64,000 nucleotides of DNA from a virus. The stretch's first letter is position 1. The number at the start of each line of letters is the position of its first letter. The notes below the pieces were generated by a model. The model was not told the DNA's origin. It did no database searches and saw nothing but the letters and a program-made list of their open reading frames with translations. The stretch is from positions 238,064 through 302,063 of the IMG/VR virus record IMGVR_UViG_3300021077_000115, one strand, 5' to 3'. A program made the translations under genes and the position numbers. Positions 582 through 32,110 of this stretch are shown here, piece after piece.

Positions 582-1434
582 ATTTCCTAGATAATGAGAA
601 GTTTGAATTTTCGTATATATGATTCAAAAAAGATAAAGCGTGTCTTCCAACAAAATACACATCAGTTTTACCAACACAACTATTTATATCATACTTATCG
701 CAAAACTTCTCAATATCAAATCTCATAGCATCTGAATATGATGTTATCTTACATCTTGGAGATGTACATCCGAACCAAGGATTTGTAATACTACCATCAC
801 TATCACTCAGCCCCCTAATAAAGTGCCACATTAATTCATCCGGTAGGTTTGGTAAAGATAATGAGTAGCATTTTTTACCAGGAACTATCCTAAGATGACC
901 GCAAATATCTTCTACAATTCTTGTTGAGTTTATTTTCACAGATAGGCAGTTTTCATCAGGTACTATATTGAGTGTCGGCGCAACAAATGATCGTAGTAAA
1001 TTCAAGCTCTCCACATCGTTTTTGTTGGCGTGAAGAGCAATCCGTTTGTTGTCGATGCTGCCATCACCAGCTATCAAACCTAATAGGTAAGCCTTGATTT
1101 CCGAGTCTATTTCTAAGAAACACGTTTCATTCTTTCGGTGTACAAACGCACCATTTCTTTCCCCAACATTCACCGACTTGTTATAGCAGTATGTGCAAAT
1201 ATCTTTATCTTGATTTTTTAATCTAGACTTTACAATCCACCTGTATCCCTTTAAATATCGACCCTTACATTTGATAGAAGATTTTAAGTCACACTCTATC
1301 AGTACCTTAGAATTTGTATTTTTGTAACTAGATAGGTCTACAATAACCATGACATCCCTCACATTTTCCACAAAAGAAACGAAAATATTCAATTTATTGC
1401 TATCCGTAGTTACTACTAAAACACCAAGTACCAT
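502..1434 (-). CDS. free-standing LAGLIDADG homing endonuclease with a Cys-rich N-terminal extension. The true start is probably an internal Met near 1350, because the annotated start overlaps the divergent cca gene.
   Basis: Two LAGLIDADG-type motifs are visible in the translation: YLLGLIAGDGSIDNK and HFIRGLSDSDGSI. A C-x2-C...C-x-C cluster sits N-terminal to them. The gene lies between unrelated genes and is not inside an ORF. Confidence 0.75.
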   Translation of the reverse strand: MVLGVLVVTTDSNKLNIFVSFVENVRDVMVIVDLSSYKNTNSKVLIECDLKSSIKCKGRYLKGYRWIVKSRLKNQDKDICTYCYNKSVNVGERNGAFVHRKNETCFLEIDSEIKAYLLGLIAGDGSIDNKRIALHANKNDVESLNLLRSFVAPTLNIVPDENCLSVKINSTRIVEDICGHLRIVPGKKCYSLSLPNLPDELMWHFIRGLSDSDGSITNPWFGCTSPRCKITSYSDAMRFDIEKFCDKYDINSCVGKTDVYFVGRHALSFLNHIYENSNFSLSRKFELYKIWKTWRPYKGTCVRPGRQSKT

Positions 1435-3109: not shown

Positions 3110-3115
3110 GTTTCC

Positions 3116-3367
3116 TTACTGCGTAGATTGGTTTCGATAATCGCGCAACCTGCGCCTAACGATTCCCAGATACAATTCAACCTCCTCTTCATCCTCAAGT
3201 GGTCCGAAGAGGTACATGACAACAGCCAGACAAGCTGTATGCTCTAGGGTTTTTGTGTCTGGGAATTGCTTTTCGAAGTTTTCGACAAGCTCCACTATAC
3301 GCGGCTTGTATCGACTATCATCATTCCACGATTTATTCTTGCAAATCTCTTCCCATTCTTTAATCAT
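3116..3367 (-). CDS. hypothetical protein (83 aa)
   Basis: ORF in the same orientation; its ATG overlaps the stop of the upstream ORF. Confidence 0.4.
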   Translation of the reverse strand: MIKEWEEICKNKSWNDDSRYKPRIVELVENFEKQFPDTKTLEHTACLAVVMYLFGPLEDEEEVELYLGIVRRRLRDYRNQSTQ

Positions 3368-3621
3368 TTTTCATCTCCAACAATAACTGTCCTAATAGCC
3401 CTAGGATGGCCGGATAATGCGCGAGGATTAATGAACCCAATTCCAATACGCTCAACTATTCTAAATTCTCCACCCAGTAAGTCAGGTAATACTTCTGGCT
3501 TTGGCCCCTTCCAGATATGTCTTTCAGGATTAATTGGAGTCATCTCAATTACAATCTCATTAGCAGGATGAAGATCATCCTCGGTAATATCTGGGTAGCC
3601 TTCTCTTTTAATAACAATCAT
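3364..3621 (-). CDS. hypothetical protein (85 aa)
   Basis: ORF translationally coupled to the guaC stop (4-nt overlap). Confidence 0.4.
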   Translation of the reverse strand: MIVIKREGYPDITEDDLHPANEIVIEMTPINPERHIWKGPKPEVLPDLLGGEFRIVERIGIGFINPRALSGHPRAIRTVIVGDEK

Positions 3622-4652
3622 AGTATGATGCTATGTGGATGTGATTCTTTCAAGCCAGCATTGGATATTACTACAAACTCAGGATCTAATTTCAGTTCTT
3701 TAAGATTGCGCGCACCTTGATATGAGCACCCACTTCTTATACCCTCAGTAAGTTTAATAACAACGTCAGCAACTTTTCCCTTATAGGGGACAAGGGCAAC
3801 AACACCCTCTATATGATTTTGTTTATGGGTAGAGCTACCCTCATACTTCTTGAATTTTGAACCTCCATCTAAGATGCCTGTGGGCCTATAACGATCATCA
3901 ATAACCGAACCTGGCGCTTCATCAGTTCCAGCAAATAGATTGCCAATCATTACCAGATCTGCAAAGGCCAAAGCCTTCACACAATCACCTGCGCTCTTGA
4001 TTCCGCCATCGGCTATAAATATTGGCCATTCGCCATCGTGCTCACCATAGCAACCATTGCATACGTTGTCTAAAGCGCTGAGTTGTGGATATCCATTGCC
4101 AGTCTCAATTCTTGTTGTGCAAAGAGATCCTGGCCCAACACCAATCTTGATAATATCAGCTCCAGCACTCCACAGATGATTGGCCCCGGTCTCAGTAACC
4201 ACATTACCAGCTATAATAAGAATGCTTGGATATTTGGCGCGAATATCTGCAACAAAATCATATACTTTATCATGATCTCCATGGGCAACATCTACGCAAA
4301 TTACATTGCACCCAATGTTATAGAAATCACTTACTAATACTTTATCCTCATCCTTTATACCAACTGAAACCCCAATCAACCCATCAGATACCGAGTTCCT
4401 AGCTGTATCGAAGTTCTTTAGAAGAGTTATATGGTCATCAAACCGATGAAGGATAGGGAGCCCGCCAAGATTGGCTATGGCAATTGTCATCTTAATTTCG
4501 GTAACAGTCTTCATATTTGCCGAAAGAATAGGCAACTTCAAACTATTACCTTTTGGTAACCTAACTGATAAATCTACATCATCGCGAGATTTGAGAGAGC
4601 TGCGTTTGGGGATTAGAAGCACATCGTCAAAAGTATATCCTTGAGTGAACAT
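3618..4652 (-). CDS. guaC: GMP reductase (IMPDH/GMPR family without a CBS subdomain)
   Basis: The N-terminus FDDVLLIPKRSSLKSRDDVDL is nearly identical to E. coli GuaC [21 protein letters not shown]. The catalytic loop IKIGVGPGSLCTTRIETGNGYPQLSAL matches [27 protein letters not shown]. The 344 aa length fits. Confidence 0.9.
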   Translation of the reverse strand: MFTQGYTFDDVLLIPKRSSLKSRDDVDLSVRLPKGNSLKLPILSANMKTVTEIKMTIAIANLGGLPILHRFDDHITLLKNFDTARNSVSDGLIGVSVGIKDEDKVLVSDFYNIGCNVICVDVAHGDHDKVYDFVADIRAKYPSILIIAGNVVTETGANHLWSAGADIIKIGVGPGSLCTTRIETGNGYPQLSALDNVCNGCYGEHDGEWPIFIADGGIKSAGDCVKALAFADLVMIGNLFAGTDEAPGSVIDDRYRPTGILDGGSKFKKYEGSSTHKQNHIEGVVALVPYKGKVADVVIKLTEGIRSGCSYQGARNLKELKLDPEFVVISNAGLKESHPHSIIL

Positions 4653-7667: not shown

Positions 7668-8195
7668 CTACATTTTATGAGCCATCAACTCAGAGCGAAT
7701 TTCCATCCACAACTTCCCCAATTGATTCCTACCATCCCTATTAGGTCCCCAGCCCCAGAAATCATCACGCCAAGAATTCTCCACAAGCTCACGATCGCCA
7801 GTAGCAAGAAGCTTGCGGCGTACATATTCATGCTGGTTGACTTTGGCGCGTAGAATATCTCGCATGATGTCAACCTTAACAAGATCCCAATCAATCAGAC
7901 GTATCGCCTTATTTTTCTCAGCAATTTTGAATGCTTCGTGAGCGCTTGGGGCTGTTTGAATAGCCGCTCGTACAATGATCTCTCCTGGAAATTTCTCCCA
8001 GTGGTAAGCAGCTTCGCTAGTGTCGAATCTCAAGTTCTTCCAACTTAAAGTAAATGCCGAGAAGTTGGATAATACGTAGAAATCTTGCTCGTAAAAGCAA
8101 ATACGCTCGTCAGTATCTAGGCCGTGATTCATATCAATTCCTTTCTGAGTAGGATTCACTAAATGCTGCAATGATTGGATCTTTGAGAACTGCAA
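7668..8195 (-). CDS. NADAR (YbiA / DUF1768) domain protein. The true start is probably the Met near 8132.
   Basis: FYEQDFYVLSNFSAF...FDTSEAAYHWEKF matches the NADAR signature (F...LSNF...F.S.EH/AY...KF). The annotated N-terminus overlaps the exonuclease gene by 62 nt. Confidence 0.75.
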   Translation of the reverse strand: MQFSKIQSLQHLVNPTQKGIDMNHGLDTDERICFYEQDFYVLSNFSAFTLSWKNLRFDTSEAAYHWEKFPGEIIVRAAIQTAPSAHEAFKIAEKNKAIRLIDWDLVKVDIMRDILRAKVNQHEYVRRKLLATGDRELVENSWRDDFWGWGPNRDGRNQLGKLWMEIRSELMAHKM

Positions 8196-13447: not shown

Positions 13448-14251
13448 TCAAAAATCTTTGGCACTTATACCGTGATCAGTAATAATATGCCTGTTTCCAT
13501 CTTCATCAATGGTTACACTATGTTCAAAATGACATCCGATGTCATGAGTTACAACTGTCCATTTATCAACCAATGTTCTTGCCCGAGTATTATTACCAAG
13601 GACAAACATAGGCTCTATTGCAATTGACATTCCTGGTTGAAGCTTCACCCCTTCATTAACTCCAGATTTATTTGATACAAATGGATCTGCGTGCAATTTA
13701 TCATTGTCGATTCCATGACCGCCAAAATCTGTAATTACTCCAAACTTGTCTTGCTTAGATCTTTCCCAAATCGCCTTGCCGAGTTCGCCAATACGCCTAC
13801 CAATCTCTACAAGCTTTATGGCATCATGCAAAGCTTCTTGACAAGATATTAGCATACGGCCAATTTCAGGATTGGTTATCTTACCATATACATATGTTAC
13901 GGCACAGTCTCCAATTGCCCCTTCGAAAGTTGCTCCGATATCTACTTTTAGAACGTCCCCATCCTTCAAATTGATATCTCTGGTGCCAATGCCATGAACA
14001 AGCTCTTTATTCAAAGAGGCACAAATAGAAGCCGGGAATCCTCGATAGTAAAGGAAAGTTGGAGTACAATTATTATATCTAATCAACTCCTCTACTAAGG
14101 AATTAAGCTTGGAAAGCGTTAGGCCACTGGCCGTGCCTTTCAACATAGCATAAATCTCATTATGAGCCTTAGCTACAACACGACCAGCAATCTTCTGCCG
14201 CTCAATCCACTCTTTGTCCTTCAGAACAATTATTTCACTCTTTTGGGTCAT
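13448..14251 (-). CDS. map: methionine aminopeptidase, type I
   Basis: FGGHGIDNDKLHADPFV and VTHDIGCHFEHSVTIDEDG match MetAP metal-binding blocks (H-x-D ... E-x-x-E). The 267 aa length fits. Confidence 0.85.
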   Translation of the reverse strand: MTQKSEIIVLKDKEWIERQKIAGRVVAKAHNEIYAMLKGTASGLTLSKLNSLVEELIRYNNCTPTFLYYRGFPASICASLNKELVHGIGTRDINLKDGDVLKVDIGATFEGAIGDCAVTYVYGKITNPEIGRMLISCQEALHDAIKLVEIGRRIGELGKAIWERSKQDKFGVITDFGGHGIDNDKLHADPFVSNKSGVNEGVKLQPGMSIAIEPMFVLGNNTRARTLVDKWTVVTHDIGCHFEHSVTIDEDGNRHIITDHGISAKDF

Positions 14252-15415: not shown

Positions 15416-15761
15416 TCCATGTATTTACGACCATCTCATAATAAAGCTTCTTGGCTAATGTTCTCGCCTTAATATCTTTTCGCATGATAAATTTAGGCTT
15501 GAACCATTGAGCTAGTTTAGTATCCTGACAATAGATTTCATATCCTCTATCACCATCTTCTATAATCTCTACTTCTAGTTCACCAAGCAAACCACGTAGT
15601 TTTATCTTTTCTTCTACAGTTAGTAATATATCAGGCCAAATATCTTCTAGAGGAACACCTATCTGTTCTAGTATGCTTTTAATAAAAAGGTTTCTCTCCT
15701 CTTCCTCTACAACCTTTTCGTCTCCTCTATCTAGATAAACCGACCGATTCATTACCCACAT
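15381..15761 (-). CDS. hypothetical protein (126 aa)
   Basis: ORF in operon orientation. It overlaps the nrdJ stop region. Confidence 0.45.
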   Translation of the reverse strand: MWVMNRSVYLDRGDEKVVEEEERNLFIKSILEQIGVPLEDIWPDILLTVEEKIKLRGLLGELEVEIIEDGDRGYEIYCQDTKLAQWFKPKFIMRKDIKARTLAKKLYYEMVVNTWSVFDQEENEND

Positions 15762-18700
15762 CCACTATATGTACACTCCTCGTTGGTACAATTACCACAG
15801 GCAGCTCCAGTCTTTCGATATGTTCGCTTGCCACAAGATGGGCACTTTTCCATAGGGACTGCGTTTTTCCTATCAAAATCTTCAATAGTAGATGTCTTAG
15901 ACTCTTCCTCTTGCTGCTCTTCTGCATAAGTTCGCAAGACACGAGCAATATTAGTTGGCAAAGAGAATATATACTGTCCGCCAATCTTATCCAACTGCTC
16001 ACAGATGAACATGATAGGAACACCATGCCTCAAGTTCATGCTGGTTGTTCTTGCTGTCAGCTCTAGGATTTGAAGATCTTTTTCGCTCAATCCAAAATAC
16101 GGGGCAATCACCAAGACCTCATACGGCTTCTTGGTACCAGGGAAGAAGCTCACTGTAACATAAGCATTTCTCGGTTCACCATTACCAAAATCAATTCGAA
16201 TCTTGTGCGTCTCTGAATCCAGAATCTTGTCACGCTTTGGAGCAAATGCCTGACCGGGCGCATCAAAGATTGGTGTAAACCAACTAAGTACATCTTGCTT
16301 CGTATACTTGGGCAATGATATACCATCTGCCGTTTCCCAATCAAAATTGCCCTGAGCTAAACTCTTAGCCTTGGCAATCTCCTTCAATTCCTTGCTGACA
16401 TCTTCCAGCTTAGAGGCGATGGCATCCCACAGATCAAATCCTTCCTTATCAAAGACTTGACTATAATGTCCGATAAGATAGTTTTCGCACTTCAGCGCCT
16501 GCTTATCGCCTGTTACCAAAACTCCATCGCGAGATCCGTCAACATAAACGGTGACTCCTTTGAGGCCATATTTCCAAGCCTCCATATAGATCTTAGAAAC
16601 AACACTATTGGGAGTTCCTGCAGGTAAATTGATAGTACTACTAATCGAATGATCGATATGCTTCTGCTCAGCAGCCTGGATCATGATTCGCTTTGTCCAG
16701 TCTACCTCATCCGAGTTAACAAAGAATTCAGGAAGTGGTGCGCTCTCATCTAGGCCGAACTTCTCTAGATATGCTCTAGCATTGTGTGAGAACTGCTTGT
16801 ACTCTTGCCATGAATCACCATTGACGTCTGTGAAGTCAACACGTACACCAACATCATTTGGATTCACCTTCTTGCGGCGAATGAAGTAGATACGGAAGAC
16901 TGGTTCAACACCCGAAGAAACATTGAAGTAAGAAAAATTGCCTAGTTTGGAAATGATAGCCACCGAACCAGTTGGGGCTTGCGTCAACATAGAAATGTTG
17001 CGCCTTCCATATATAGCCATATCAGCTAGGATGTCTGCTGGTAGGTCTTTGATGAAAGGATTGTCCTTTTCCAATTCCCAATTGAACTCTGGGAAGGGCC
17101 CACGAATTTTTGCCAACTCTACAGATGTTCTATAGGCCGTTTCTTTGAATGTTCGGTAGATTTTATCTACCATTTCAATAGCAGCATCAGAATCATACCT
17201 AATACGAAGCTGTGCTAAAGCATCGGCTAGCCCATGAGTTCCTAAGCCAGTTCTACGACCATCACGCCCGGCATCATGAAGCTTCTGCCAGATAACAATC
17301 TCCTGATCGACATCCTCTTGGGTAGTGCCAGTGTCTTTGATAACCGTTATGATCTTCTCAATCAATTCCAATTCAAGATCAACAAGGTTATCACCCATCC
17401 TTGCTTGAATAGCAACATCGGCAATGAAGCGATCGAAATCGAACTGGGCTGTTCCCTCAAATGGGTTGTTGACGTAATTCGTTAGATTCAAAGATATCAA
17501 ACGGCAACTATCGCTTGCTGAAAGAATAATCTCTGAACATGGGTTAGTTGAAACTGACTTGAATCTTGGATAGCAATGTGCTGGTAATGTTCGTACGGCG
17601 TTATTCCAGAGAACCAAACCAGGCTCTGCTGACTTGGTTGCAGAATCAACAATAGCATCCCAAACACGGCGCGCAGAAACCTTTCGGCTGATCTTCGGCG
17701 TCTTACTTTCACAAGGCCAACGAACTTCATAATCAGTTCCATCTTCAACAGCCTTGAGGAACTCATCACTCAAGCGCAAGGAGATGTTAGCTCCTGTAAC
17801 TTGAGTTAGGTCATGCTTCATGTTCGTAAACTTGAGCACATCTGGATGATGGACATCCAAAGTTATCATCAAAGCGCCACGCCTCCCGCTGTTATGAACA
17901 TAAAATCCTTCGCACCAAAATAGATGTTCTTCAGGAAGCTCTAAATCGAATGTCTCTTCAACTCCGTCCTCTGTAATTGATGATACGGTCGCCTTTATAA
18001 GCAGACCGCTCTGAGCCAGCTTTTCGCCAGCAGACTTGATCTTCAAATACGCAGTGGCCGATACAAAATGTGAGTTATCAGGTATAAAATCATATTGATT
18101 ATGAGTTACGCCAAGTGACTTTGCTTTGTATGGTGTTGTATAATTGTCTCGCTTAGAAATGAAGCGTTCATATATCTTTTCTGCAGGAAAAGTACCACCA
18201 TCAATACAGGCAACCAATGCCTCTTGTGCATGTGTTCCTGTAATCGCTACAGAGTATAAATCTCTCCACTCTTTTGATGTACGATCTTCTGTGTGAATTT
18301 TACTAATAATTCCATTTGCCATCAACATTATCTGAATATCCTTGGCAAAAGAAAATGAAGTTGTTGAAAAAGAATATCCTTTTTTGGATTTACCGTTAGT
18401 TCCATCGGCGTCAAAGAAACCTGCCAAGAATGACATTTGAATCTCTGATGAGGCTTTTAATATACTAGATGGTACCCTAATTTTGGTTGATTTTTCCTTG
18501 AGTAGTGAATTAGCCTTCAACCAATGACAAACCAACTTACTGTTAATTGTGACCTTATTAACGGCACCATCACCGGGCCTAATTGATGCATCAATACCAA
18601 ATACTCTTTTAATTATCTTACAAGCTTGTGCCTGAACCGCCGGATGTTCATGAGCACATGCTATTGAAATCAATAATGGTTCGTTGAATTTATCATACTC

Positions 18701-19678
18701 AACGCCCCCATCACCATACATTAACCCAAGGATATATGCTAAATCAGTATTTATATTACGCGGTAAATTTACATCTTCATTTAATCTATTTGAATTATTG
18801 TATTGCTTCTTTACGTATTCTGGACAAACCAGATCATCAGTTCCAACGCCAACCCTCCAAGCTCCAGGTATTAATACTACAGAGTCACCCTCTTCAAAAT
18901 CACCTAGGCGCTTTTCTATCAGGACACCATCCTCTTCTGTTAAGAATAGATGATCTTCCGACGCCCGAACAGAGAAACCATACGATGTTTGTAGTTTGTA
19001 AATCTTCTTTGAACCATTAATGAATAAATTAGAAACCCCAATAAATCCATTCTTGGTCCATACAGAATCAATACTAGGCCTTACTTCCTCAATTGGAATT
19101 AGCCCATTTCTAGTAAGAACCCTCTCGCCTTTAGCAATACACTGTCCTATCTTTCTGGTAACTTCAGAGAAGAAATCTGCAAAGCTCCATGCTCCAGTTG
19201 TTGTGCGTGCGGCATTGTTCACCGTCATCCCATCTGGGCGCAGGGATGATAAATCAAACCCAACTCCACAGCGTCTTTTATAGAGTTGGGCAAGATTGTG
19301 AGCGGTCCTAAAAATACCAGAAATTGAATCTTCTGGAGATGCTTCAACGACGCAGTTGGAAGCACTCATTGTTTGGTAGGGATTTCCTACCGCCGCCATA
19401 ACTGAACCTTGTGGTACAATGCGTCCAAATTGAGACATGGCATTGTAATATATAGCTGTTTGATTTGTGTTATCAATAGAATCATCGTATCTAGTATCAA
19501 TACGAGCAAACTCTGTAGCCAGCCTATTGTGCATACTCTCTGGAGTTGGTTCTACAATATCACCATCAGAATCACGCATTGCGTATTTGTTCAGGTATAC
19601 GCTGGCTGATATCTCCTCTCCGTTGAAGTAAGCAAGTGCTAGTTTATGGGCATCTTCGTATGAATACTTTTCCGACAT
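15752..19678 (-). CDS. nrdJ: ribonucleotide reductase class II (adenosylcobalamin-dependent NrdJ), intein-containing, with a C-terminal Cys4 zinc ribbon
   Basis: The N-terminus is YLNKYAMRDSDGDIVEPTPESMHNRLATEFARID (the class II signature LRDRYF..D..G...E). It has no ATP cone. The C-terminus is CPSCGKRTYRKTGAACGNCTNEEC. The extein junction ...RKIGQ | SGRRGALM flanks a 417-aa insertion. Confidence 0.9.
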   Translation of the reverse strand: MSEKYSYEDAHKLALAYFNGEEISASVYLNKYAMRDSDGDIVEPTPESMHNRLATEFARIDTRYDDSIDNTNQTAIYYNAMSQFGRIVPQGSVMAAVGNPYQTMSASNCVVEASPEDSISGIFRTAHNLAQLYKRRCGVGFDLSSLRPDGMTVNNAARTTTGAWSFADFFSEVTRKIGQCIAKGERVLTRNGLIPIEEVRPSIDSVWTKNGFIGVSNLFINGSKKIYKLQTSYGFSVRASEDHLFLTEEDGVLIEKRLGDFEEGDSVVLIPGAWRVGVGTDDLVCPEYVKKQYNNSNRLNEDVNLPRNINTDLAYILGLMYGDGGVEYDKFNEPLLISIACAHEHPAVQAQACKIIKRVFGIDASIRPGDGAVNKVTINSKLVCHWLKANSLLKEKSTKIRVPSSILKASSEIQMSFLAGFFDADGTNGKSKKGYSFSTTSFSFAKDIQIMLMANGIISKIHTEDRTSKEWRDLYSVAITGTHAQEALVACIDGGTFPAEKIYERFISKRDNYTTPYKAKSLGVTHNQYDFIPDNSHFVSATAYLKIKSAGEKLAQSGLLIKATVSSITEDGVEETFDLELPEEHLFWCEGFYVHNSGRRGALMITLDVHHPDVLKFTNMKHDLTQVTGANISLRLSDEFLKAVEDGTDYEVRWPCESKTPKISRKVSARRVWDAIVDSATKSAEPGLVLWNNAVRTLPAHCYPRFKSVSTNPCSEIILSASDSCRLISLNLTNYVNNPFEGTAQFDFDRFIADVAIQARMGDNLVDLELELIEKIITVIKDTGTTQEDVDQEIVIWQKLHDAGRDGRRTGLGTHGLADALAQLRIRYDSDAAIEMVDKIYRTFKETAYRTSVELAKIRGPFPEFNWELEKDNPFIKDLPADILADMAIYGRRNISMLTQAPTGSVAIISKLGNFSYFNVSSGVEPVFRIYFIRRKKVNPNDVGVRVDFTDVNGDSWQEYKQFSHNARAYLEKFGLDESAPLPEFFVNSDEVDWTKRIMIQAAEQKHIDHSISSTINLPAGTPNSVVSKIYMEAWKYGLKGVTVYVDGSRDGVLVTGDKQALKCENYLIGHYSQVFDKEGFDLWDAIASKLEDVSKELKEIAKAKSLAQGNFDWETADGISLPKYTKQDVLSWFTPIFDAPGQAFAPKRDKILDSETHKIRIDFGNGEPRNAYVTVSFFPGTKKPYEVLVIAPYFGLSEKDLQILELTARTTSMNLRHGVPIMFICEQLDKIGGQYIFSLPTNIARVLRTYAEEQQEEESKTSTIEDFDRKNAVPMEKCPSCGKRTYRKTGAACGNCTNEECTYSGCG
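17891..19141 (-). mobile_element. intein (417 aa) with a LAGLIDADG homing-endonuclease domain inside nrdJ
   Basis: It starts at Cys180 (CIAKGERVLTRNG, Hint block A). LAGLIDADG motifs are LAYILGLMYGDGGV and MSFLAGFFDADGT. It ends ...GFYVHN followed by Ser (+1) of SGRRGA. The boundaries were mapped to codons by hand (ACA codon at 19139-19141, GTT at 17891-17893). Confidence 0.8.
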
Positions 19679-19684: not shown

Positions 19685-20344
19685 TCAAAACAAGTCTATC
19701 AATTCTCGTTTCAGCGTCTTCTTTGCTTCTGTTAATAACTTTATGCAGCTCATCCTAGAAATACTTAATCTATCGCAAATCTTACCAATAGAATAAAGGT
19801 CTCTGCGATTCTCGGATGCTCCGCCTAGTTCATAATGTAAGGTTATTACCTTACGCTGATCCTCTGGCAATTTATCCACCGCACTCCGAATCAAAGTAAC
19901 CGCTTCGTCTTTAGCAATATGATCGAGAGCACTAATCTCTCCGTCGATAATTATTGGAAGTTGAGATACTTTGTACGGTTGAACATGCTTGGCATGTTTC
20001 AGCGGCACCTTGATAGTAGAGTGGCGATTCGCCTCTCGACTAATCTTGGTTTTGATGTACTTATTTGCCCACCAGTAGAAATCGCCCTTTTCGGGCTTAT
20101 AAGTCTGCAATGCCCTATACAAAGCAATACGGCCATCTTGTTTAAGGTCTTCGTAATTTGCGAATCCCTTATATCTTCTAGTACGTGCATCAACTAAGTA
20201 TTCAAGTTCTTTGGTACATTCTGATTGAATATCTTCAAGTTCTCTTTTTAGATTGTTGCTCTTAGACTTTACACATTTCTTTCTAAGGACAACCATATTA
20301 CTCAAAAGAGCATTAATCCTATCTTGATCAATTACATTATTCAA
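19685..20344 (-). CDS. RNA polymerase sigma factor, sigma-70 family (regions 2 and 4)
   Basis: DLKQDGRIALYRALQTYKPEKGDFYWWANKYIKTKISREANRHSTIKVPLKH matches sigma-70 region 2.1-2.4/3.0 (DLiQeG.lgL..A...fdp.kG.kFstYA.wwIr.aI.R.......iriP.h). A C-terminal HTH (SIGKICDRLSISRMSCIKLLTEAKK) corresponds to region 4. Confidence 0.8.
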   Translation of the reverse strand: MNNVIDQDRINALLSNMVVLRKKCVKSKSNNLKRELEDIQSECTKELEYLVDARTRRYKGFANYEDLKQDGRIALYRALQTYKPEKGDFYWWANKYIKTKISREANRHSTIKVPLKHAKHVQPYKVSQLPIIIDGEISALDHIAKDEAVTLIRSAVDKLPEDQRKVITLHYELGGASENRRDLYSIGKICDRLSISRMSCIKLLTEAKKTLKRELIDLF

Positions 20345-20623: not shown

Positions 20624-20800
20624 TTATCTCCTAATTTCCTTGAGTGTTTTACCAAGGAGTACTAATTCAACATCATCCATCCAATTGTCTCGTACTCTTT
20701 GTTTAAAGCTCTCATCAATAACCTTAAATACCAAATACAAATCACCTGTAATTGGATCAACTTCCATTCTAATGGCTCGTGCAACAGTATCAAAGACCAT
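20624..20800 (-). CDS. small hypothetical protein (58 aa)
   Basis: Its ATG overlaps the dnaB TGA stop (ATGA). Translation MVFDTVARAIRMEVDPITGDLYLVFKVIDESFKQRVRDNWMDDVELVLLGKTLKEIRR. It is not in the ORF track because it is under 60 aa. Confidence 0.35.
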   Translation of the reverse strand: MVFDTVARAIRMEVDPITGDLYLVFKVIDESFKQRVRDNWMDDVELVLLGKTLKEIRR

Positions 20801-22251
20801 CAACTATCCTTTGCCTTATTCTTTGCCTCCTGAATTGATCTAATCAGGTCTGGTATATTGGCAGTTACATCTCCAGGAATTTCTCTCTGATCATATGGTA
20901 CATCTATAAGAGATGCATTGGCAAAATTCTTAATCAAATTACCTTGACCCAATGGACCCTTTCGATTCTTGACTACATGAATCTTCAAATCTGGAAAGCT
21001 CATCTCGTTTTGCCTTGTCTCTATTTGAATACCCAAATTTACGTGATGCATTATCAAAGATGAACGTCCCCATCGATGCATACCAACTGCACGATTCTCA
21101 TCCTTGGATCCTGTTGCGTTCCTCTTGAGATCTGTAAGCTGGGCAGCTGTAATAATTGCATTGTCATAAGCTCTTCCGAACTCATGCAATGATGCAGCTA
21201 TCCCTCCAAGCTTCAACCAATCTTGTTCTTTTGCAAGAGCCGTACTGTGCATCAAACCCATATAATCAACGACTACCACGTCTGGACGATATCGTAACAG
21301 TGCATCATGATATCGCAGCTCAACCTCTTCAATTGTAAGGTTTCGTGGGACATCTACAATGTCAAAATAATAGCCGCTTCCTTGATATGCTTTGATAAAA
21401 TCATAAGCCTTTTGTACTCTCATCTCTTCCTCACGAGATAGAGTGGCTTTGGTCAAGCCTCGCTGTGGAACATTAGCTAAGCTGGCAAGGAACCTAACAA
21501 AGCAGTCCTCATAGGGCATTTCCAGGGAGAAATAGAGGATATTGTAACCCTTCACCATTGAGGTGCTGGCAGACGACTCGATTGTATTTCCCTGAAGCCA
21601 AATCTGCTTGGCCATATTGTTAAGCAACTGCGACTTGCCGGCATTGCTCTCACCACCAATCATAATCAGCTCGCCAGGTGAAATGCCCCCAGAAACGGCA
21701 TCAATCATACTGTAGCCGGTCTTGATTTCTACGGAATCTTCGGGGTTAAGCTTGCGCGCCTCGTAAGAATCAATGAATTCAGGGATATAATCGCCGACAG
21801 GCTTTTGGGTATAGGTTCGTTCAAGCTCTATCGAGGTAATTCGGTTGATAGCCAACGATAGCTTGTTGAAATACTCCTCTGGGTTATCTGGAGAATCAGG
21901 ATCATCAGATGACGCCTGCGCACGGATATCCTCTACCGCCTGTTGTTGAAACCTCTTCTTCAACTGTTCGAGATCATAGGGATATTCGCGAGTGTCGTAT
22001 TCTAGCCCTTCTATCTCACTCCAAGCATCCTCTATATTGGCCACGAGCAGTGGATTGCCACTGTGATGTTCGATAAGGGTTCGTTTGGTAGGGGGCGATC
22101 TGAAGTGTTTGGTATAATCCAGGACTAGTTTGGCGAAACGCTGAACGTCAATATCGAACAGAGTATGATCATAACGAGAAACGAATGTGAGCGCGCTTAC
22201 CTTGTCATGTACAAGGGCTTTAAGAATCTTAAGATCTAGTTCCTCTATCAT
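20800..22251 (-). CDS. dnaB: replicative DNA helicase, DnaB family
   Basis: Walker A in the RecA-like domain is GYSMIDAVSGGISPGELIMIGGESNAGKSQLLNNMA. Walker B is DVVVVDYMGLM. The C-terminal arginine-finger region is typical of DnaB. Confidence 0.85.
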   Translation of the reverse strand: MIEELDLKILKALVHDKVSALTFVSRYDHTLFDIDVQRFAKLVLDYTKHFRSPPTKRTLIEHHSGNPLLVANIEDAWSEIEGLEYDTREYPYDLEQLKKRFQQQAVEDIRAQASSDDPDSPDNPEEYFNKLSLAINRITSIELERTYTQKPVGDYIPEFIDSYEARKLNPEDSVEIKTGYSMIDAVSGGISPGELIMIGGESNAGKSQLLNNMAKQIWLQGNTIESSASTSMVKGYNILYFSLEMPYEDCFVRFLASLANVPQRGLTKATLSREEEMRVQKAYDFIKAYQGSGYYFDIVDVPRNLTIEEVELRYHDALLRYRPDVVVVDYMGLMHSTALAKEQDWLKLGGIAASLHEFGRAYDNAIITAAQLTDLKRNATGSKDENRAVGMHRWGRSSLIMHHVNLGIQIETRQNEMSFPDLKIHVVKNRKGPLGQGNLIKNFANASLIDVPYDQREIPGDVTANIPDLIRSIQEAKNKAKDS

Positions 22252-24017
22252 AATTCTCCCTTTTTAATCATGTCTCGCATATCCTGCCCACCAATAACAG
22301 GAACCAATTTAACCACTTTCATCAAACTTTCAATACTTGCTCGCAAAGGTCCAGAGAAACTTTCCTCAACCTTCACGCTGTTGGTACAGAAGAATAGAGG
22401 TACCTTATTTTGAATTCTGGTCCTCATAATTGGCTCAAGAATGCGGCCAAATAGATCGGCGGCATTCTCACTGCCCATAAAGCGAGCATCGAACTCATCT
22501 ATTACCAAAAAGTCTATAGATAGTAATATCTCTCGCGCCTGAGATTTTACCTCTGGCGAGGAATACAGCATGATATGGATTATGTCCGTCAGATTGACAT
22601 ACAGAGCGCTGTAGCTCTTTTCGACGGCTCGCTTCAGGATGCAGCAGGAAACCATCGTATTGTGCGTTGCGATAAAATTGCGCGTAATCAAAAATAAATG
22701 AGATGGGCTATCAACCGTAAGGCATCTCATTGGCCTTGGATCAATTATAGAAACCTTAGTTATGAACCTGTGAGTTGTTCTGGTTTCCTGTGATTTTTCC
22801 AATCTTATATTTTGAAGTTTTCGAGTAATTCTACAGATTGGTAGTTTTGTAGTAAATGTTACTCGATAACGATCCTGGCATCGCTTACCATTGAGAAAGC
22901 TTTTGTTTTTATTGATTGTTGCCTTTATCCCAAAGCTCAAAATCAATTGTAAAAACCCCCTAGCTAATGGCTCAATAACAGAACAGAACTCACATAGGCC
23001 AGTATCAGTTATATGGCCATCAGTATCCATCAATCCCTGAACTAAAGCAAGTCTCTGTTCAAATGAAGAATGTAAATATTCCCAAGGTATATACTTATTC
23101 TGTATTAGCCCAAATTCTCTCAATTCTTTAGCTAATCTTCCGGTTTTTCTCTTAAACTTTCCAACAGGAATCAATTTACCAATTCTATAAAGAAAAGATT
23201 TTGATTTAGAACTAACTGATGAAGGCTTCAAAAACGCTTCATATCCAATCAGCTCTATATTATGAATAATCTCTATATCTGCAGATTCAATCGATCCCTC
23301 TCTACAAGTCCCATCACCAAGCCAGCAACCCAAAACATAAGGATCTATTAGTAGTGATTTGCTGCTGTAATTTATTGGCCTCGAACACTCAATGGAATGA
23401 TTAGATATTTTTTGCTTACCATTAACCTTTTGAGTTAGGAATATTTCCTTAGTAGTCCTTACTTCTGGAGCTGATTTATCAAGTCTGCTTTTTCTAGTAT
23501 GAGTAAGCCATAAATGATCAGCACAAGCATTTACTTTTAAACCATCATCAAACTCTAGTTCATAAGATTCTGGGCTTATCTGTATTGGGTGTAATTTTAA
23601 TACCTTACAAATATTACCATTTTCATCAAATAAAGAATCTCCTTCGCAAAGATCCTTTAGCTTGATAAATCCGGTTGGTGTTGGCAACTCGGTCTCAAGA
23701 TCTAATTGTTTACCGATTCCATGTTTACCGGCAAAGAATGCCCGCTCACCATTCTTGTAAGTCTCCTTGATGTCTTTTGTAACATCTTGATAGACTTTAC
23801 CCAGAATAGCGGGGCCTGACCAATCCGTCATGTCACGCCACCAGTAATCAACTGGTATATTGGCGTCGTAATAGCGCTGGAATGCAGTTGTAAGAGAAGC
23901 ACCAGCTGTGGTTAGTATGCCATCGTTGGATTGACTATCAAGAAGGTCACTGACGGAATCATCTAGCTTTCTTCTTGGGATGTTTAGGAATGGGTTTTGT
24001 AAATATTGGGTATCCAA
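22248..24017 (-). CDS. AAA+ P-loop ATPase (DnaC/IstB-like putative helicase loader) interrupted by an intein in the Walker A motif
   Basis: The exteins join as ...AFFAGKHGIGK | TMVSCCILK..., which reconstitutes GxxGxGKT. Walker B is FLVIDEFD. The combined extein is about 240 aa. The gene lies immediately upstream of dnaB and is translationally coupled to it. Confidence 0.65.
   Translation of the reverse strand: MDTQYLQNPFLNIPRRKLDDSVSDLLDSQSNDGILTTAGASLTTAFQRYYDANIPVDYWWRDMTDWSGPAILGKVYQDVTKDIKETYKNGERAFFAGKHGIGKQLDLETELPTPTGFIKLKDLCEGDSLFDENGNICKVLKLHPIQISPESYELEFDDGLKVNACADHLWLTHTRKSRLDKSAPEVRTTKEIFLTQKVNGKQKISNHSIECSRPINYSSKSLLIDPYVLGCWLGDGTCREGSIESADIEIIHNIELIGYEAFLKPSSVSSKSKSFLYRIGKLIPVGKFKRKTGRLAKELREFGLIQNKYIPWEYLHSSFEQRLALVQGLMDTDGHITDTGLCEFCSVIEPLARGFLQLILSFGIKATINKNKSFLNGKRCQDRYRVTFTTKLPICRITRKLQNIRLEKSQETRTTHRFITKVSIIDPRPMRCLTVDSPSHLFLITRNFIATHNTMVSCCILKRAVEKSYSALYVNLTDIIHIMLYSSPEVKSQAREILLSIDFLVIDEFDARFMGSENAADLFGRILEPIMRTRIQNKVPLFFCTNSVKVEESFSGPLRASIESLMKVVKLVPVIGGQDMRDMIKKGEL
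22659..23708 (-). mobile_element. intein (~350 aa) with a LAGLIDADG endonuclease domain in the P-loop of the AAA+ ATPase. It lacks an obvious N-terminal Cys or Ser.
   Basis: Hint-like start region LPTPTGFIKLKDLCEGDSLFDENGNICKV. LAGLIDADG-like motifs YVLGCWLGDGTC and LVQGLMDTDGHI. The C-terminus is ...NFIATHN followed by Thr (+1). The residue after GK is Gln, so the upstream boundary is uncertain and a class 3-like mechanism is possible. Confidence 0.6.
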
Positions 24018-26469: not shown

Positions 26470-27005
26470 TCAACCTTCAAAACTTGAACAGCTTCTGTTG
26501 AAAGACCTCTACTTCCAAATAAACAATATAGGCGATCCATATCTTTTTGATCATCAGAAGAAACTGAACCAAAACATCCAAAGAATTCTGGATCTGGTAA
26601 TATCATGCAAACATTATCTTCTATATCATCAATTCCAAATACTCTATTTGATTCTATTTGTTTTTTCAAAGAAGTGCTGCACACGATATTACGATCTTGA
26701 ATTAGATTGAAGTTATACTTATTCATTTTCTTCTCAAGACCTTCATTGATGTAATCATCTATGATAAACTTCAAAAGTTTATTAGCCATCTCAACTATAC
26801 CAAAGATATCAGGATCTATAAGCCTCATCATCAACCTATCTCTGACATCAACTTTTCGCTTACAAATACTACCATCTGCTTGTAGTAAATAATAAGTTGT
26901 TTCATCAGCTTCATAGACAGGTTGATAGTAATTGGATAGCCTCCCTAAACAATCACACACAAATATGCGCTGCAGGCTATCAATCGAGCCATGTTTGAAT
27001 TCCAT
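26466..27005 (-). CDS. hypothetical protein (179 aa)
   Basis: ORF whose start overlaps the stop of the tubulin-like gene. Confidence 0.45.
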   Translation of the reverse strand: MEFKHGSIDSLQRIFVCDCLGRLSNYYQPVYEADETTYYLLQADGSICKRKVDVRDRLMMRLIDPDIFGIVEMANKLLKFIIDDYINEGLEKKMNKYNFNLIQDRNIVCSTSLKKQIESNRVFGIDDIEDNVCMILPDPEFFGCFGSVSSDDQKDMDRLYCLFGSRGLSTEAVQVLKVE

Positions 27006-28399
27006 TACTTCTTTCTCCGGTCATGAACGGCAGCGTTGTGTAGCTTGGTAAAGGAAGATGCCTTCTGCTGAATCCTGCGCTTGATTTCCTCAACCTGATT
27101 GGTGCTCTCTTCTCCAACATCAACCTTAATGGTCATGTTGCGCTCATCGTCCTTGCGCTGAGCAGCTCCCATTTTCAACTGGGCCTCGGTCTTCAATTGA
27201 TTAACTCTTTCCTCTGGTAATCCAAGACCGGAGAACATTGAATAGACCTTTACGCAGTCATCCTCAGACTCTTCTTTGTAAATACCATGGAAGGGCACAA
27301 CGCCTTCACACGTATCAAGAATCATCGATTGTGCAAAGTGTAGGCTGGAACTTGGAATTTTGTTCCACACCCTATCAGGGGCCACAAGCATGAATCCAGC
27401 ATATCTAGCCTGACGAATATTGAATCCTGAAGCCAGCAAATTACCCTTGAGAGACTCTAGAATTGCTGAGGCAATTGCCATCTCATCTTCATAATCCGGG
27501 ACAGTGGTAACGCCATATACCGTGAAGCCTTTGCCGTCCATAAATAGCTTACCAAACTCAGAGGAATCAAGAACCTTGACTCCTTCATCTGGGCGGCGGC
27601 TCATTGTATTGAAAACATCCAAAGGCTCTACAATAGCCTTATTCGAAACCTGGAAGAAGTTGAATGGACCAACATCACTATACAATGACTCAATCTTTGC
27701 GTTATCAACAGCAATGATGTTGTGTATCTTGCCAGCGGTAAAGAGCTTCGTAAACGTGCTTAGTGTCTGCCATGCATTGTGCTTCAGCTGAGCATCTTCG
27801 CTGGCTTTTGGTAGAACCGTAAGTACAGCAATTGGCTTTTCTAGCTGCGACAGAATATCAACGACAACTGGCACAGAACCAGCACCAGAACCACCACCAA
27901 GTGATGTGCAGAAAATGAATACTTCTACATCGCTCAAATGACGCTGAATAAGTTGATTGATAGCTGCTCGATAGGCATCCGCAGCATCATGGCCAATGGT
28001 CAGATCTTTTGCAGCGCCTCCAAGACCAAAGTCAAGCAATAGCTTTTGCCGCTCTGGAAGCTTGATATTCTCCAAATCCTGAGGGGCTGTGTTCATGCAA
28101 ACCGCTGGGTAACCAAGAGCAAAGAATTGTTCTGCCAAGCGGCTTCCTGCCTGACCAGACCCAACAATTCCAAAGCGCAGGCTTCGTTGCTGCTCCTCTA
28201 CAATACGTGGTGGCATAACCTCCTCCTTTACCTCCTCTTTTGTCTCGTTGAGCTTGGCAAGTTCCTTTGCTTCTTCTGCTCTCTTCTGTGCGGCTCGCGC
28301 CTTCAGAGCGGCCAATTTTTCTTCATCAACTTGTGGTGTTTCGATATCGTTCACTATTTCCTCTCGATTTAATTTTTCAATCTTTGATTGAGTTACCAT
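27005..28399 (-). CDS. tubulin/FtsZ-superfamily GTPase (phage PhuZ/TubZ/FtsZ-like) with a ~75-aa charged N-terminal extension and a basic C-terminal tail
   Basis: The T1 loop is FGIVGSGQAGSRLAEQF. The tubulin signature is FIFCTSLGGGSGAGSVPVV (GGGTGSG variant). An FtsZ-like T7 region is LTVLPKASEDAQLKHNAWQ...HNIIAVDNAKIE. The N-terminal ~75 aa are K/E-rich and look like a coiled coil. Confidence 0.7.
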   Translation of the reverse strand: MVTQSKIEKLNREEIVNDIETPQVDEEKLAALKARAAQKRAEEAKELAKLNETKEEVKEEVMPPRIVEEQQRSLRFGIVGSGQAGSRLAEQFFALGYPAVCMNTAPQDLENIKLPERQKLLLDFGLGGAAKDLTIGHDAADAYRAAINQLIQRHLSDVEVFIFCTSLGGGSGAGSVPVVVDILSQLEKPIAVLTVLPKASEDAQLKHNAWQTLSTFTKLFTAGKIHNIIAVDNAKIESLYSDVGPFNFFQVSNKAIVEPLDVFNTMSRRPDEGVKVLDSSEFGKLFMDGKGFTVYGVTTVPDYEDEMAIASAILESLKGNLLASGFNIRQARYAGFMLVAPDRVWNKIPSSSLHFAQSMILDTCEGVVPFHGIYKEESEDDCVKVYSMFSGLGLPEERVNQLKTEAQLKMGAAQRKDDERNMTIKVDVGEESTNQVEEIKRRIQQKASSFTKLHNAAVHDRRKK

Positions 28400-28413: not shown

Positions 28414-29373
28414 TTACATATTTAGCACATATTTATTGCTAACGTACCACTGGCAAGTTTGGGCAATCCCGTCTCTGAATTTGAATTGCGGATTCCATCC
28501 AAGAGTCTTTATCTTATCATTAGACATAGCTAATCTACGATCAAAATTACTCTCGACGTGTTTGATTAACTCATGACCTTTACCAATGGTATTACAAATC
28601 ATCTGAACAACTTCCAGATTGCTAAATTCCTGCTTAGAAGTTATATTGTATATCTCTCTATCAACCCCATTATCAATGATGCTAAATAACGCAGAGCATG
28701 TATCAAATACATGTGTCCACTCTTTAGTATGAGCACCCGAATCATTGATGTTTATATTTTCTTCACTTATATATCTATCATTCAATATACAATCAATAAT
28801 TCTTGGTATTAGATTAGATGCAGTCTGCCATGGACCATAGTTATCACTCAGACGAACAATATTGTAGTGCAAACCTGATAGCCCATAAAAACTAGAAGCC
28901 TTCACCAACAACTCACCAGCCGCTTTTGTAGCAGCAAAGGTTCCTCGCGGATTTGGAGTATCTAATTCATTATATGGGCTATCGTTCTCAGACTTTAGTT
29001 CGCCATATATATTATTGTCGCTGACATAAACCAATCTAGCATCTATTTTCATGCATTCATTGATAATATTTTGCGTTCCAACAAGATTACTACTTACCAT
29101 GGAGGCTTCATCTTTTGATTCTGCGGCTCCATGGATAACAATATCTGGGCGTTCCTTCTCAAATATTACATGTAGGGTATGAGCATCTCTAACATCTGCA
29201 ATATAAAACGAATGATCGGTATTTACGTAGATGTTATGAATAATATGAGAGTCTCGCACCCTATCCATACTAGAAATGGTGTAGGGCAGTTTCGAATAGA
29301 AAACTTGCCGAATGAAGTTCCCGAAAATAAACCCCCCCGACCCCGTGATCAACAATCGCCTTCTTTTAGCCAT
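28414..29373 (-). CDS. RmlB-like (dTDP-glucose 4,6-dehydratase family) extended SDR protein with substituted catalytic residues. Possibly a pseudo-enzyme.
   Basis: It aligns by eye to RmlB along its whole length (LLITGSGGFIFGN / IVIHGAAESKDEAS / PRGTFAATKAAGELLVKA...NYGP / DRRLAMSNDKIKTLGWNPQFKFRDGIAQTCQWYVSN). The YxxxK catalytic Tyr is replaced by Phe (FAATK). The TDE triad is replaced by SDN (VSDNNIYG). The third Gly of GxxGxxG is replaced by Phe. Confidence 0.65.
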   Translation of the reverse strand: MAKRRRLLITGSGGFIFGNFIRQVFYSKLPYTISSMDRVRDSHIIHNIYVNTDHSFYIADVRDAHTLHVIFEKERPDIVIHGAAESKDEASMVSSNLVGTQNIINECMKIDARLVYVSDNNIYGELKSENDSPYNELDTPNPRGTFAATKAAGELLVKASSFYGLSGLHYNIVRLSDNYGPWQTASNLIPRIIDCILNDRYISEENININDSGAHTKEWTHVFDTCSALFSIIDNGVDREIYNITSKQEFSNLEVVQMICNTIGKGHELIKHVESNFDRRLAMSNDKIKTLGWNPQFKFRDGIAQTCQWYVSNKYVLNM

Positions 29374-31117: not shown

Positions 31118-32110
31118 TCATTTTGAGCGTTCGATATGAGCTAATCTGGCCCCATAGAATCTGGCGGCCCTCTGTGACACCTTATACCAATTGATGGTTT
31201 CTATCAGCCCATCAATTAATGACGTCCTGGCTTCAAATCCTAAAATCTCTTTAGCCCTAGACACATCAAGGCATCTACGAGGTTGCCCATCTGGATTTTC
31301 ATAGTCGTAAATAATAGTTCCTTTATATCCAACAATATCACAAACAGCAGTTACGACCTCATGAATGCTGGTCTCCACCCCAGTGCCAAGATTGATTATT
31401 AGATTAGTATTTAGCTCTCGTTGAATTGCAAGCAACAAATAATGACTAACATCCTTTGCAAAAATAAAGTCTCTAGTAGCCTTTCCGGTTCCCCAGATAT
31501 TAACACTATCTTGATTGAGATAATGGGCATCGCATACTTTTTTAACTATAGCCGGTATTACATGAGAGTTCTCTAGATCAAAATGATCTTTTGGCCCAAA
31601 TATATTTGATGGAAGAAAGAACACAGAGTTTAATCCATATTGATCCCTATATTTCTCTCCAAGAACAAGTAATGCCTTTTTGGCAAAAGAATATCCACTA
31701 TTAGAGCGGTCCTCTCTCCCATTCCAAAAATCATCTTCTTTAAATGGAGTTGCGCAATTTAATGGATAACCACAAGCAGATCCGCAATTGTATACATTCT
31801 TAATTCTATCCAAATTAGCTTCAATTCCAGAATATAAATTTATACCCATCAACAAGTTTGTATGAGTTAAATTTGCTGGTCTGCGTTTATTCAATCCAAT
31901 CCCACCAACAAAGGCAGCTAAATGTAAGATAGTATCGAAATCATTGCTCTTGAAATAGTCAAGAACGCCACCAACATTTGTAAGGTCCAATTCCTTTGAT
32001 GATGGTGTTAAAATATCCAAACCATTATTAACAGCTTCTTCAACGACATGCTGCCCAAGAAAGCCAGAGGCTCCAGTAATTAATATTTTCACATCACCTC
32101 CATATTCCAT
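31118..32110 (-). CDS. fcl: GDP-L-fucose synthase (GDP-4-keto-6-deoxy-D-mannose 3,5-epimerase/4-reductase)
   Basis: VKILITGASGFLGQHV Rossmann motif. CGSACGYP matches Fcl GSSCIYP. YSFAKKALLVLGEKYRDQYGLNSVFFLPSNIFGPKDHFDLENSHVIPAIV matches Fcl [20 protein letters not shown]...PTNLYGPHDNF...SHVIPAL. Confidence 0.75.
   Translation of the reverse strand: MEYGGDVKILITGASGFLGQHVVEEAVNNGLDILTPSSKELDLTNVGGVLDYFKSNDFDTILHLAAFVGGIGLNKRRPANLTHTNLLMGINLYSGIEANLDRIKNVYNCGSACGYPLNCATPFKEDDFWNGREDRSNSGYSFAKKALLVLGEKYRDQYGLNSVFFLPSNIFGPKDHFDLENSHVIPAIVKKVCDAHYLNQDSVNIWGTGKATRDFIFAKDVSHYLLLAIQRELNTNLIINLGTGVETSIHEVVTAVCDIVGYKGTIIYDYENPDGQPRRCLDVSRAKEILGFEARTSLIDGLIETINWYKVSQRAARFYGARLAHIERSK

Follow-up and report, generated by a model that had tools for sequence, protein, structure and literature searches.

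In this study we analyse a 64,000-nucleotide stretch of viral DNA (IMG/VR record IMGVR_UViG_3300021077_000115, positions 238,064 to 302,063; hereafter the window), in which nrdJ, a gene for the alpha chain of ribonucleotide reductase (RNR), is interrupted in frame by a segment of 417 amino acids. With a probability of roughly 0.88 we read this segment as an intein of the canonical class 1 type, equipped with an intact double-motif LAGLIDADG homing endonuclease and located in loop 2 of a dimeric-type adenosylcobalamin-dependent RNR of an uncultured jumbo phage, which would be able to splice and to home. This reading is carried by the anatomy of the segment, its precise excisability, intein-less alleles, a family of related inteins in this position, decoupled similarity of intein and exteins, and a tract of apparent gene conversion. 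The coordinates of all elements are given in Table 1, and an arrow (↓) marks the boundary between intein and extein.

The first-pass annotation, made from the sequence alone, had placed a class II (B12-dependent) RNR at 15752-19678, and the longest open reading frame (ORF) overlapping this interval indeed encodes such a protein. In the 1308-amino-acid precursor the Pfam domain Ribonuc_red_lgC is split into two stretches, with Intein_splicing and LAGLIDADG_3 between them. The unspliced precursor is already above the cut-off of TIGR02504, the NCBIfam equivalog for adenosylcobalamin-dependent RNR (NrdJ), with 429 bits versus 400 (curated value 399.95 bits). Deleting residues 180-596 in silico yields an 891-amino-acid protein that matches both Ribonuc_red_lgC (1-523/523) and TIGR02504 (3-604/606, 448 bits) in a single stretch, and it scores 206 bits against the class I model TIGR02506 (NrdE_NrdA), under the cut-off of 341. 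Its alignment to the sequence of the Thermotoga maritima NrdJ structure (1xjk, 134-636) runs continuously over the junction, with C109, STNPCSE and SDSC falling on C134, NPCGE (C322) and C333. The catalytic residues C109, N-P-C-S-E and C725 as well as the six Cys of the C-terminal tail (CPSCGKRTYRKTGAACGNCTNEECTYSGCG) are all conserved, and the C-extein also holds the second redox Cys and, near the C-terminus, a TSCPD domain (Pfam). A six-Cys C-terminal zinc domain is found in ∼70% of NrdJ sequences and does not resemble the C-terminus of class I enzymes in sequence (PMC5704485). No NrdB/NrdF domain was found in the 33 scanned ORFs of the window, which covers 64 kb of a genome of ∼390 kb. Because the TIGR02504 cut-off is passed, the class I model stays under its own and the six-Cys domain is present, the host protein is by sequence a class II NrdJ with predicted adenosylcobalamin dependence. 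Most likely the phage thus supplies its own deoxynucleoside triphosphates (dNTPs) in an oxygen-independent manner.

The insert begins with CIAKGERV (Cys180) and ends with FYVHN (Asn596), and the next residue is Ser597 (SGRRGALM). This is exactly the 417-residue intein with Cys1, terminal His-Asn and Ser+1 that had been proposed at first, and both LAGLIDADG motifs named with it were located, their acidic residues invariant. Pfam scores are 36.7 bits for Intein_splicing (cut-off 35.8) and 57.5 bits for LAGLIDADG_3. In an alignment of nine family members the invariant positions are C1, the block B Asp-His, G-D-G, F-D-A-D-G, one Lys and H-N-S-G-R-R, which is the pattern that purifying selection on splicing and nuclease functions would give. 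A Cys in block F/G (FWCEGFYVHN) is specific to the subfamily. In base composition the intein (GC 37.8%, third-position GC3 29%) differs from the exteins (GC 43.9%, GC3 41%). An AlphaFold2 model calculated from the family alignment reached a predicted local distance difference test score (pLDDT) of 87 and a predicted template modelling score (pTM) of 0.90. In Foldseek searches of the PDB its best match was TliVMA (7qss, E 3.6e-25, template modelling (TM) score 0.68), followed by the bifunctional intein-endonucleases PhoVMA, PI-PkoII, PI-PfuI (1dq3) and PI-SceI, and a profile search of PDB sequences gave the same top matches. The mini-inteins gp41-1 and NpuDnaB superpose on the model with a root-mean-square deviation of ∼2 Å, and its central domain matches I-DmoI (TMt 0.62-0.72), I-SceI and I-OnuI-family enzymes. 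The predicted secondary structure of intein residues ∼142-324 fits the pseudo-dimeric alpha-beta-beta-alpha-beta-beta-alpha arrangement. According to the model, the fold of the insert is a Hint domain with a pseudo-dimeric LAGLIDADG domain; judged by its sequence, in which all class 1 splicing residues are present, it belongs to the canonical LAGLIDADG inteins of class 1. Hence the 1308-amino-acid ORF should be annotated as an 891-amino-acid NrdJ plus a 417-amino-acid mobile element.

Removal of the insert restores the junction ...VTRKIGQ↓SGRRGALM..., so that the conserved SGRRGA segment expected from the first-pass annotation is regenerated. The insertion point between Q179 and S180 (spliced numbering) corresponds to Q203/S205 of T. 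maritima NrdJ, and a match to Escherichia coli R1 (query 76-180 against R1 195-295) stops at the junction, at about R1 residues 294-295. Loop 2 of R1 includes C292, R298, G299 and A301 (PMC8772380, Aquifex RNR) and connects the substrate site with the allosteric specificity site (PMC6459318; PMC9669993). Going by these alignments, the insertion site is the specificity loop 2 of RNR. Because loop 2 is interrupted, the precursor would be without working enzyme activity, and activity would therefore depend on splicing.

Alleles without the intein were found when the spliced extein was used to search 5.8 billion proteins. A protein identical to the precursor (P0001) occurs on seven contigs, with places given for three samples, and the largest of the recorded contigs measures 391,957 bp; the JGI pipeline annotation of P0001 already recognises an intein-bearing gene. 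The relative P0002 (890 amino acids) is 91% identical and lacks the insert, as do four more relatives (P0003-P0006) with 73-76% identity. The same holds for the related phage contig L007, where the extein is 93% identical and the loop-2 site is empty (AGAAAGATAGGGCAAAGTGGTCGCCGTGGAGCC). All of them lack the segment exactly at Q↓S. The intein-less sequences run ...T(R/K)xxGQ↓(S/G)GRRGALM... without interruption, and the read-through in P0002-P0004 and L007 is the same as in the spliced product. Hence the comparison with intein-less homologues and the search of metagenomes for intein-minus alleles, both suggested with the original prediction, confirm the insertion site. Ser+1 is present in every intein-bearing allele; at this position the intein-less alleles vary between S, G, E, H, K and N.

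For the splicing reaction we borrow the steps of the established class 1 pathway. The 1308-amino-acid precursor would be translated in an inactive form, since loop 2 and the barrel are interrupted. Cys1 (residue 180) would undergo an N-S acyl shift, Ser+1 (residue 597) would attack the thioester to give a branched intermediate, and Asn417 of the intein (residue 596) would cyclise with the aid of the penultimate His, so that the intein is freed. An O-N shift would then produce the 891-amino-acid NrdJ, in which the loop has its native sequence ...IGQ-SGRRGA.... Once released, the intein, or else the unspliced precursor, might cut intein-less nrdJ alleles of co-infecting relatives in a site-specific manner, and recombinational repair would copy the intein together with adjoining extein DNA into the cut allele (homing). 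As such the endonuclease is a candidate meganuclease with a target of ∼20-30 bp in a conserved RNR motif.

The distribution of inteins among close relatives is a mosaic. The loop-2 site of nrdJ is occupied in the window and in a second related contig, L004, and empty in L007 and P0002. At the catalytic Cys of nrdJ an intein is present in L007 and absent from the window, L004 and P0002. The P-loop site of dnaB is occupied in L004 and L007 and empty in the window, and the P-loop site of the helicase-loader gene is occupied in the window and empty in L004. At four or more intein sites, of which two lie in nrdJ and one each in dnaB and the helicase-loader gene, both occupied and vacant alleles thus occur among relatives of 86-93% identity. 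The NrdJ of L007 (L007:3001-6801) carries a different LAGLIDADG intein of 376 amino acids right behind the thiyl-radical Cys (STNPC↓CFDK…VISGN↓SEIIL), with a penultimate Gly in place of His.

Between the window and L004 we found a tract of 665 nt with zero substitutions, where the background identity is ∼86%. The tract begins near intein residue 200, so that the 3′ half of the intein lies within it, crosses the C-terminal splice junction and takes in 11 nt of the C-extein. About 80 substitutions would be expected over this length, and no other stretch in the 12.5 kb of synteny between the two is identical throughout; beyond the tract, identity falls off gradually into the C-extein. Over their full lengths the inteins are 96.7% identical in DNA, versus 88% for the exteins (Fisher p = 2e-21). 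Intein and extein similarity is decoupled in more distant proteins as well: in P0123 the intein is 57% identical to that of the window and the N-extein 45%, and in P0120 the values are 33% for the intein and 60% for the extein. The identical tract points to recent gene conversion. This tract and the decoupled similarity both speak for recent movement of the element. The intein is intact and probably still mobile, its endonuclease activity and the direction of transfer being inferred. The frequent exchange with a pool of related phages proposed in the first-pass annotation is directly supported by the mosaic among relatives of 86-93% identity and by the tract at the intein. The nrdJ locus offers a clean, natural, population-level case of intein turnover in uncultured jumbo phages.

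Several observations weigh against a recently homed and functional element. Splicing and DNA cleavage are deduced from sequence and model. The identical tract spans only the 3′ half of the intein and its flank, not the whole element. Instead of homing, it could thus reflect common homologous recombination of two phages that both carried the intein, or a chimeric metagenome assembly of L004. Within 15 nt on either side of the empty site of L007, six synonymous positions differ from the flanks in the window, so that this allele may or may not be cleavable. The exteins of L007 are only 79% identical in DNA to those of the window, with no local peak at the site, and this comparison counts neither for nor against co-conversion. 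Furthermore, the nrdJ copy of L004 (L004:6001-9932), which is 91% identical in DNA, is broken into three ORFs by two 1-nt insertions (AA to AAA and CT to CTCT), one of them in a homopolymer. Probably these are long-read assembly errors, real decay being the alternative. Other genes on the L004 contig likewise look fragmented.

Among the rival explanations, the one to be taken most seriously is that of a real intein that has become fixed and no longer moves: its endonuclease might be inactive or its targets exhausted, and it might be kept since imprecise loss would wreck an essential loop. Inteins commonly outlast the decay of their endonuclease, and in P0028 the intein at the same site is shorter (339 amino acids) with degenerate LAGLIDADG motifs, which shows that endonuclease loss does happen in this family and is a further point against mobility. 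In comparison with P0008, P0014 and P0084 the intein is also less conserved than the extein, as long vertical residence predicts. However, the two catalytic Asp residues show no variation across the nine aligned members, nor do the motifs around them; empty sites in relatives of 91-93% identity mean that targets exist, and the zero-substitution tract and the decoupled similarity both indicate that the element moved recently. We therefore regard immobility as unlikely.

A more speculative idea is that the inteins in nrdJ, dnaB and the helicase loader serve as interference weapons that cut the essential replication genes of co-infecting rivals, or that the loop-2 intein is a conditional splicing switch gating dNTP synthesis; we give this broader proposal little weight. 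Somewhat less still is given to the switch taken by itself, that is, to splicing that depends on redox state, temperature or nucleotides and regulates dNTP synthesis post-translationally during infection. The loop-2 position guarantees an inactive precursor, conditional splicing has been documented for other inteins that sit in replication or repair proteins, among them RadA (PMC4513877, PMC11409957), the intein of the Aquifex R2 protein benefits iron loading (PMC8772380), and the Cys in block F/G could in principle pair with Cys1. Yet targeting of conserved DNA by the endonuclease fully accounts for the preference for this site, and the existence of close relatives without the intein means that such a switch is dispensable.

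It is very improbable that the gene is a decaying pseudogene whose intein splices no more, with the phage relying on the RNR of its host or on another one. The three ORFs of L004 and the degenerating, intein-laden nrdA genes of Campylobacter phages (PMC3653736) might suggest such a fate, but the 3.9-kb frame is intact in the window with all catalytic RNR and splicing residues conserved, the identical sequence recurs on the seven contigs, and the breaks in L004 are single-base insertions of the kind typical of long-read error. Finally, the notion that the segment is a native domain or a lineage-specific insertion of NrdJ that is never excised, which has the uninterrupted reading frame in its favour and nothing more, is refuted by the intein-less alleles, in which the closest homologues lack the segment precisely at Q↓S, and it conflicts with the complete set of splicing blocks, with the Hint and LAGLIDADG fold and with the disruption of a loop that has to contact substrate and effector.

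Table 1. Positions of the nrdJ intein, its host gene and the other LAGLIDADG elements in the window.
Feature	Position	Strand	Remarks
Precursor ORF, NrdJ (class II RNR alpha chain, predicted) with in-frame intein	15752..19678	-	1308 amino acids plus stop
N-extein	19142..19678	-	residues 1-179, ending ...SFADFFSEVTRKIGQ; includes redox Cys109 (T. maritima C134)
Class 1 intein (predicted), Hint splicing domain plus double-motif LAGLIDADG homing endonuclease	17891..19141	-	417 amino acids, precursor residues 180-596
Intein block B, S-E-D-H	18950..18961	-	intein S61..H64; Asp-His invariant in family
LAGLIDADG motif 1, LAYILGLMYGDGG	18704..18742	-	includes LGLMYGDGG; G-D-G invariant in nine members
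LAGLIDADG motif 2, FLAGFFDADGT	18398..18430	-	F-D-A-D-G invariant
Intein blocks F/G, EHLFWCEGFYVHN	17891..17929	-	last residues penultimate His and terminal Asn
C-extein	15752..17890	-	residues 597-1308 plus stop; first residue Ser+1 (SGRRGALM, remainder of loop 2)
NPC thiyl-radical Cys	17531..17551	-	within C-extein
Six-Cys C-terminal domain	15755..15844	-	within C-extein
Tract identical to L004	17880..18544	.	665 nt, zero substitutions; background ∼86%
Helicase-loader ORF hosting second intein	22248..24017	-	DnaC/IstB-like (phrog_50)
Second intein, LAGLIDADG domain	22659..23708	-	350 amino acids, in Walker A (GKHGIGK↓T) of the helicase loader
Free-standing LAGLIDADG homing endonuclease gene	502..1434	-	Pfam 23.0 bits (borderline); phrog_4645 E 9e-22

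All three LAGLIDADG elements that had been counted in this segment at first are present, that is, the NrdJ intein, the intein in the P-loop of the helicase loader and the free-standing gene. The helicase-loader intein begins with Gln instead of Cys, Ser or Thr, and has Trp at B:12 (ADHLW), Cys at F:4 (MRCLTVD) and Thr at G:5 (ATHN). This W-C-T combination is the signature of class 3 inteins (PMC5050341), and by its motifs the helicase-loader intein looks class-3-like. An empty-site allele of the helicase loader in L004 (GKHGIGK↓TMVSCC, GKHGIGKTMVSCC) confirms the intein boundaries. L007 (L007:5-1879) and L004 (L004:∼2938-4056) carry an intein of ∼1.1 kb in the Walker A motif of DnaB (…GK↓A…PTHN↓S…), which the dnaB gene of the window (20800..22251) lacks, the equivalent site being at ∼21,630. 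It, too, looks like a class 3 intein from its motifs (GGHLW, VQCLQV, PTHN). With the helicase-loader intein of the window the DnaB intein shares 37.5% identity (E 7e-74); therefore, in sister phages, a single intein family is found in the P-loops of two different ATPase genes that lie next to each other. The ORF of the free-standing endonuclease overlaps head to head, by 86 nt, with the start of a gene of the CCA-adding-enzyme/poly(A)-polymerase family with an HD domain (1349..2941, + strand); its true start is probably an internal Met. We also considered intragenomic duplication as the source of the three elements and rejected it, as beyond the motif no significant similarity was seen between them. 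Being mutually unrelated, they were therefore acquired independently.

The window has a GC content of 39%, so that the description of the phage as AT-rich is correct in direction and has to be toned down to moderately AT-rich. With megablast the gene had no match in a set of 50,697 phage records. In tblastn searches of the same records the best matches of NrdJ were crAss-like, Bacteroides and Leptolyngbya phages with 33-42% identity, and no cultured phage in the phage record searches had a gene more than 60% identical. A scan of IMG/VR with the spliced extein returned distant relatives only (26-43%), and queries with the UvsW-like helicase and the tubulin found remote similarity (25-37%) in Bacillus phages including phage G. 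With the best phage matches at 33-42%, neither a cultured relative nor a host could be identified. NrdJ-like genes match 1107 phage records with hosts of every lifestyle, and NrdJ is thus common in phages. The anaerobic-tolerant or B12-replete host at which NrdJ was taken to hint in the first-pass annotation is a speculation that finds no support in these data. Rfam and tRNA scans of the window gave nothing; with no Rfam match, no group I introns lie alongside the inteins in the window.

Among the genes of the window are a TubZ/PhuZ-like tubulin, a UvsW-like helicase, DnaB, a sigma factor, a baseplate wedge protein and many auxiliary genes. This gene content and the 391,957-bp contig with the identical protein fit an uncultured jumbo phage as the source. 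The tubulin gene (27005..28399, - strand; Pfam Tubulin and TubZ-like_C), which matches Bacillus phage G (25%) and nothing else among the 50,697 phage records, suggests from its sequence a cytoskeletal function in a jumbo phage. Auxiliary genes unusual for a phage lie at 3618..4652, 7668..8195, 13448..14251, 19685..20344, 28414..29373 and 31118..32110, all on the - strand; they are a GMP reductase/IMPDH-family gene, a NADAR domain protein, an M24 methionine-aminopeptidase-like protein, a sigma-70-family factor and two nucleotide-sugar epimerases. The sigma-70-family gene is directly upstream of nrdJ. Membership in the intein-rich "Jug" gut jumbo phages (360-402 kb) was considered and rejected, since those carry nrdD and showed no link to the window (PMC12880540).

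NrdJ appears to be a frequent target of inteins. About 30 of the 120 best homologues bear inteins, at four or five active-site positions: LYKRR↓C…HN↓CGVGF (site 1), IGQ↓C…HN↓SGRRGA (site 2, the loop-2 site of the window), STNPC↓C…GN↓SEI and STNP↓C…HN↓CSEI (sites 3a and 3b, which flank the radical Cys) and HSISS↓C…HN↓TINLP (site 4). The loop-2 site is occupied in 10 of these 120 homologues, and the eight inteins compared with that of the window are 35-67% identical to it. In P0123 and P0122, two metagenome proteins of distant NrdJ type, a second intein begins 12 residues after the loop-2 intein (…VHN↓SGRRGALMMVIS↓CFEGSTQILTENG…), so that two inteins are crowded into one loop region. Among the intein hosts of bacteria RNR ranks second, with a count of 211 inteins (PMC4760082). 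In InBase the RNR inteins go by the allele names rir1-b, -g, -k, -l and -m (PMC4071816), one of which may correspond to the loop-2 site.

When the family alignment was scanned against 185,579 cellular species genomes, we found full-length homologues with 25-35% identity in the NrdJ of many Anaerolineae/Chloroflexota metagenome-assembled genomes (MAGs), and also in Paenibacillus arenilitoris, P. tarimensis (complete chromosome), Sulfobacillus and one Acidobacteriaceae MAG. These cellular class II RNR (RIR1/NrdJ) inteins are homologous to that of the window over intein residues 9-436 of the query and are likewise class 1 LAGLIDADG inteins with Ser+1 in NrdJ loop 2. However, their position (...EQGG↓C…SN↓SRRGALM) is offset by 1-2 residues, since the loop has one residue more, and their last two residues are Ser-Asn, whereas the phage subfamily ends in His-Asn (FWCEGFYVHN). 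Because cellular homologues of the intein occur in the same loop, the site and the intein lineage are neither phage-specific nor new. A group of LAGLIDADG inteins ∼23-25% identical to the NrdJ loop-2 family was seen in DPANN-type archaea and one Paceibacterota MAG (L091, L093, L100, L101, L104 and L116), with the context …RAGGQ↓C…LIVHN↓SAQRF…. Going by the motif, their host protein may be a peptide-chain release factor that is interrupted at its GGQ motif. The resemblance of its "GQ↓S" to the "IGQ↓S" of phage NrdJ might be coincidence or ectopic transfer.

Compared with known systems, the intein shares its architecture, a Hint domain with an inserted two-motif LAGLIDADG endonuclease, with PI-PfuI, the RNR intein of Pyrococcus furiosus (1dq3), and with TliVMA/PhoVMA (7qss, 7qst). 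In Foldseek the E value against 1dq3 is 1.5e-16, that against 7qss is the one given above, and the TM scores are 0.58-0.68. These inteins differ from ours in sequence (14-17% identity), in insertion site and in their archaeal thermophile hosts, and neither sequence nor profile searches of the PDB found a close sequence relative with a solved structure. PI-PfuI, listed in the structure match as an archaeal intein-encoded endonuclease, also comes from a class II RNR.

Inteins and introns in phage RNR genes have long been known (PMC3653736). The examples of the SPbeta nrdE intein, Aeh1 nrdA, nrdE of Corynebacterium phage P1201 and NrdJm of Thermus phage g20c have in common with the window that selfish elements sit in conserved motifs and are variable between close relatives (PMC3653736; PMC6459318). 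Most of these elements, however, interrupt genes of class I or class III or the monomeric NrdJm, whereas the NrdJ interrupted here is of the dimeric type, bears a CRD and comes from an uncultured phage of ∼390 kb. Mosaics of mycobacteriophages and of Jug/crAss-like gut phages are similar in that multiple inteins and homing endonucleases lie in replication and nucleotide-metabolism genes, that their presence varies among close relatives and that class 3 inteins occur in P-loops (PMC5050341; PMC12880540). The Jug phages, in contrast, belong to another lineage with nrdD instead of nrdJ, and the intein alleles of the window differ from those described in these two studies. In conclusion, the NrdJ intein will not surprise a specialist and leaves our understanding of inteins unchanged: it is a genuine example of a well-known selfish element and not a new kind of system.

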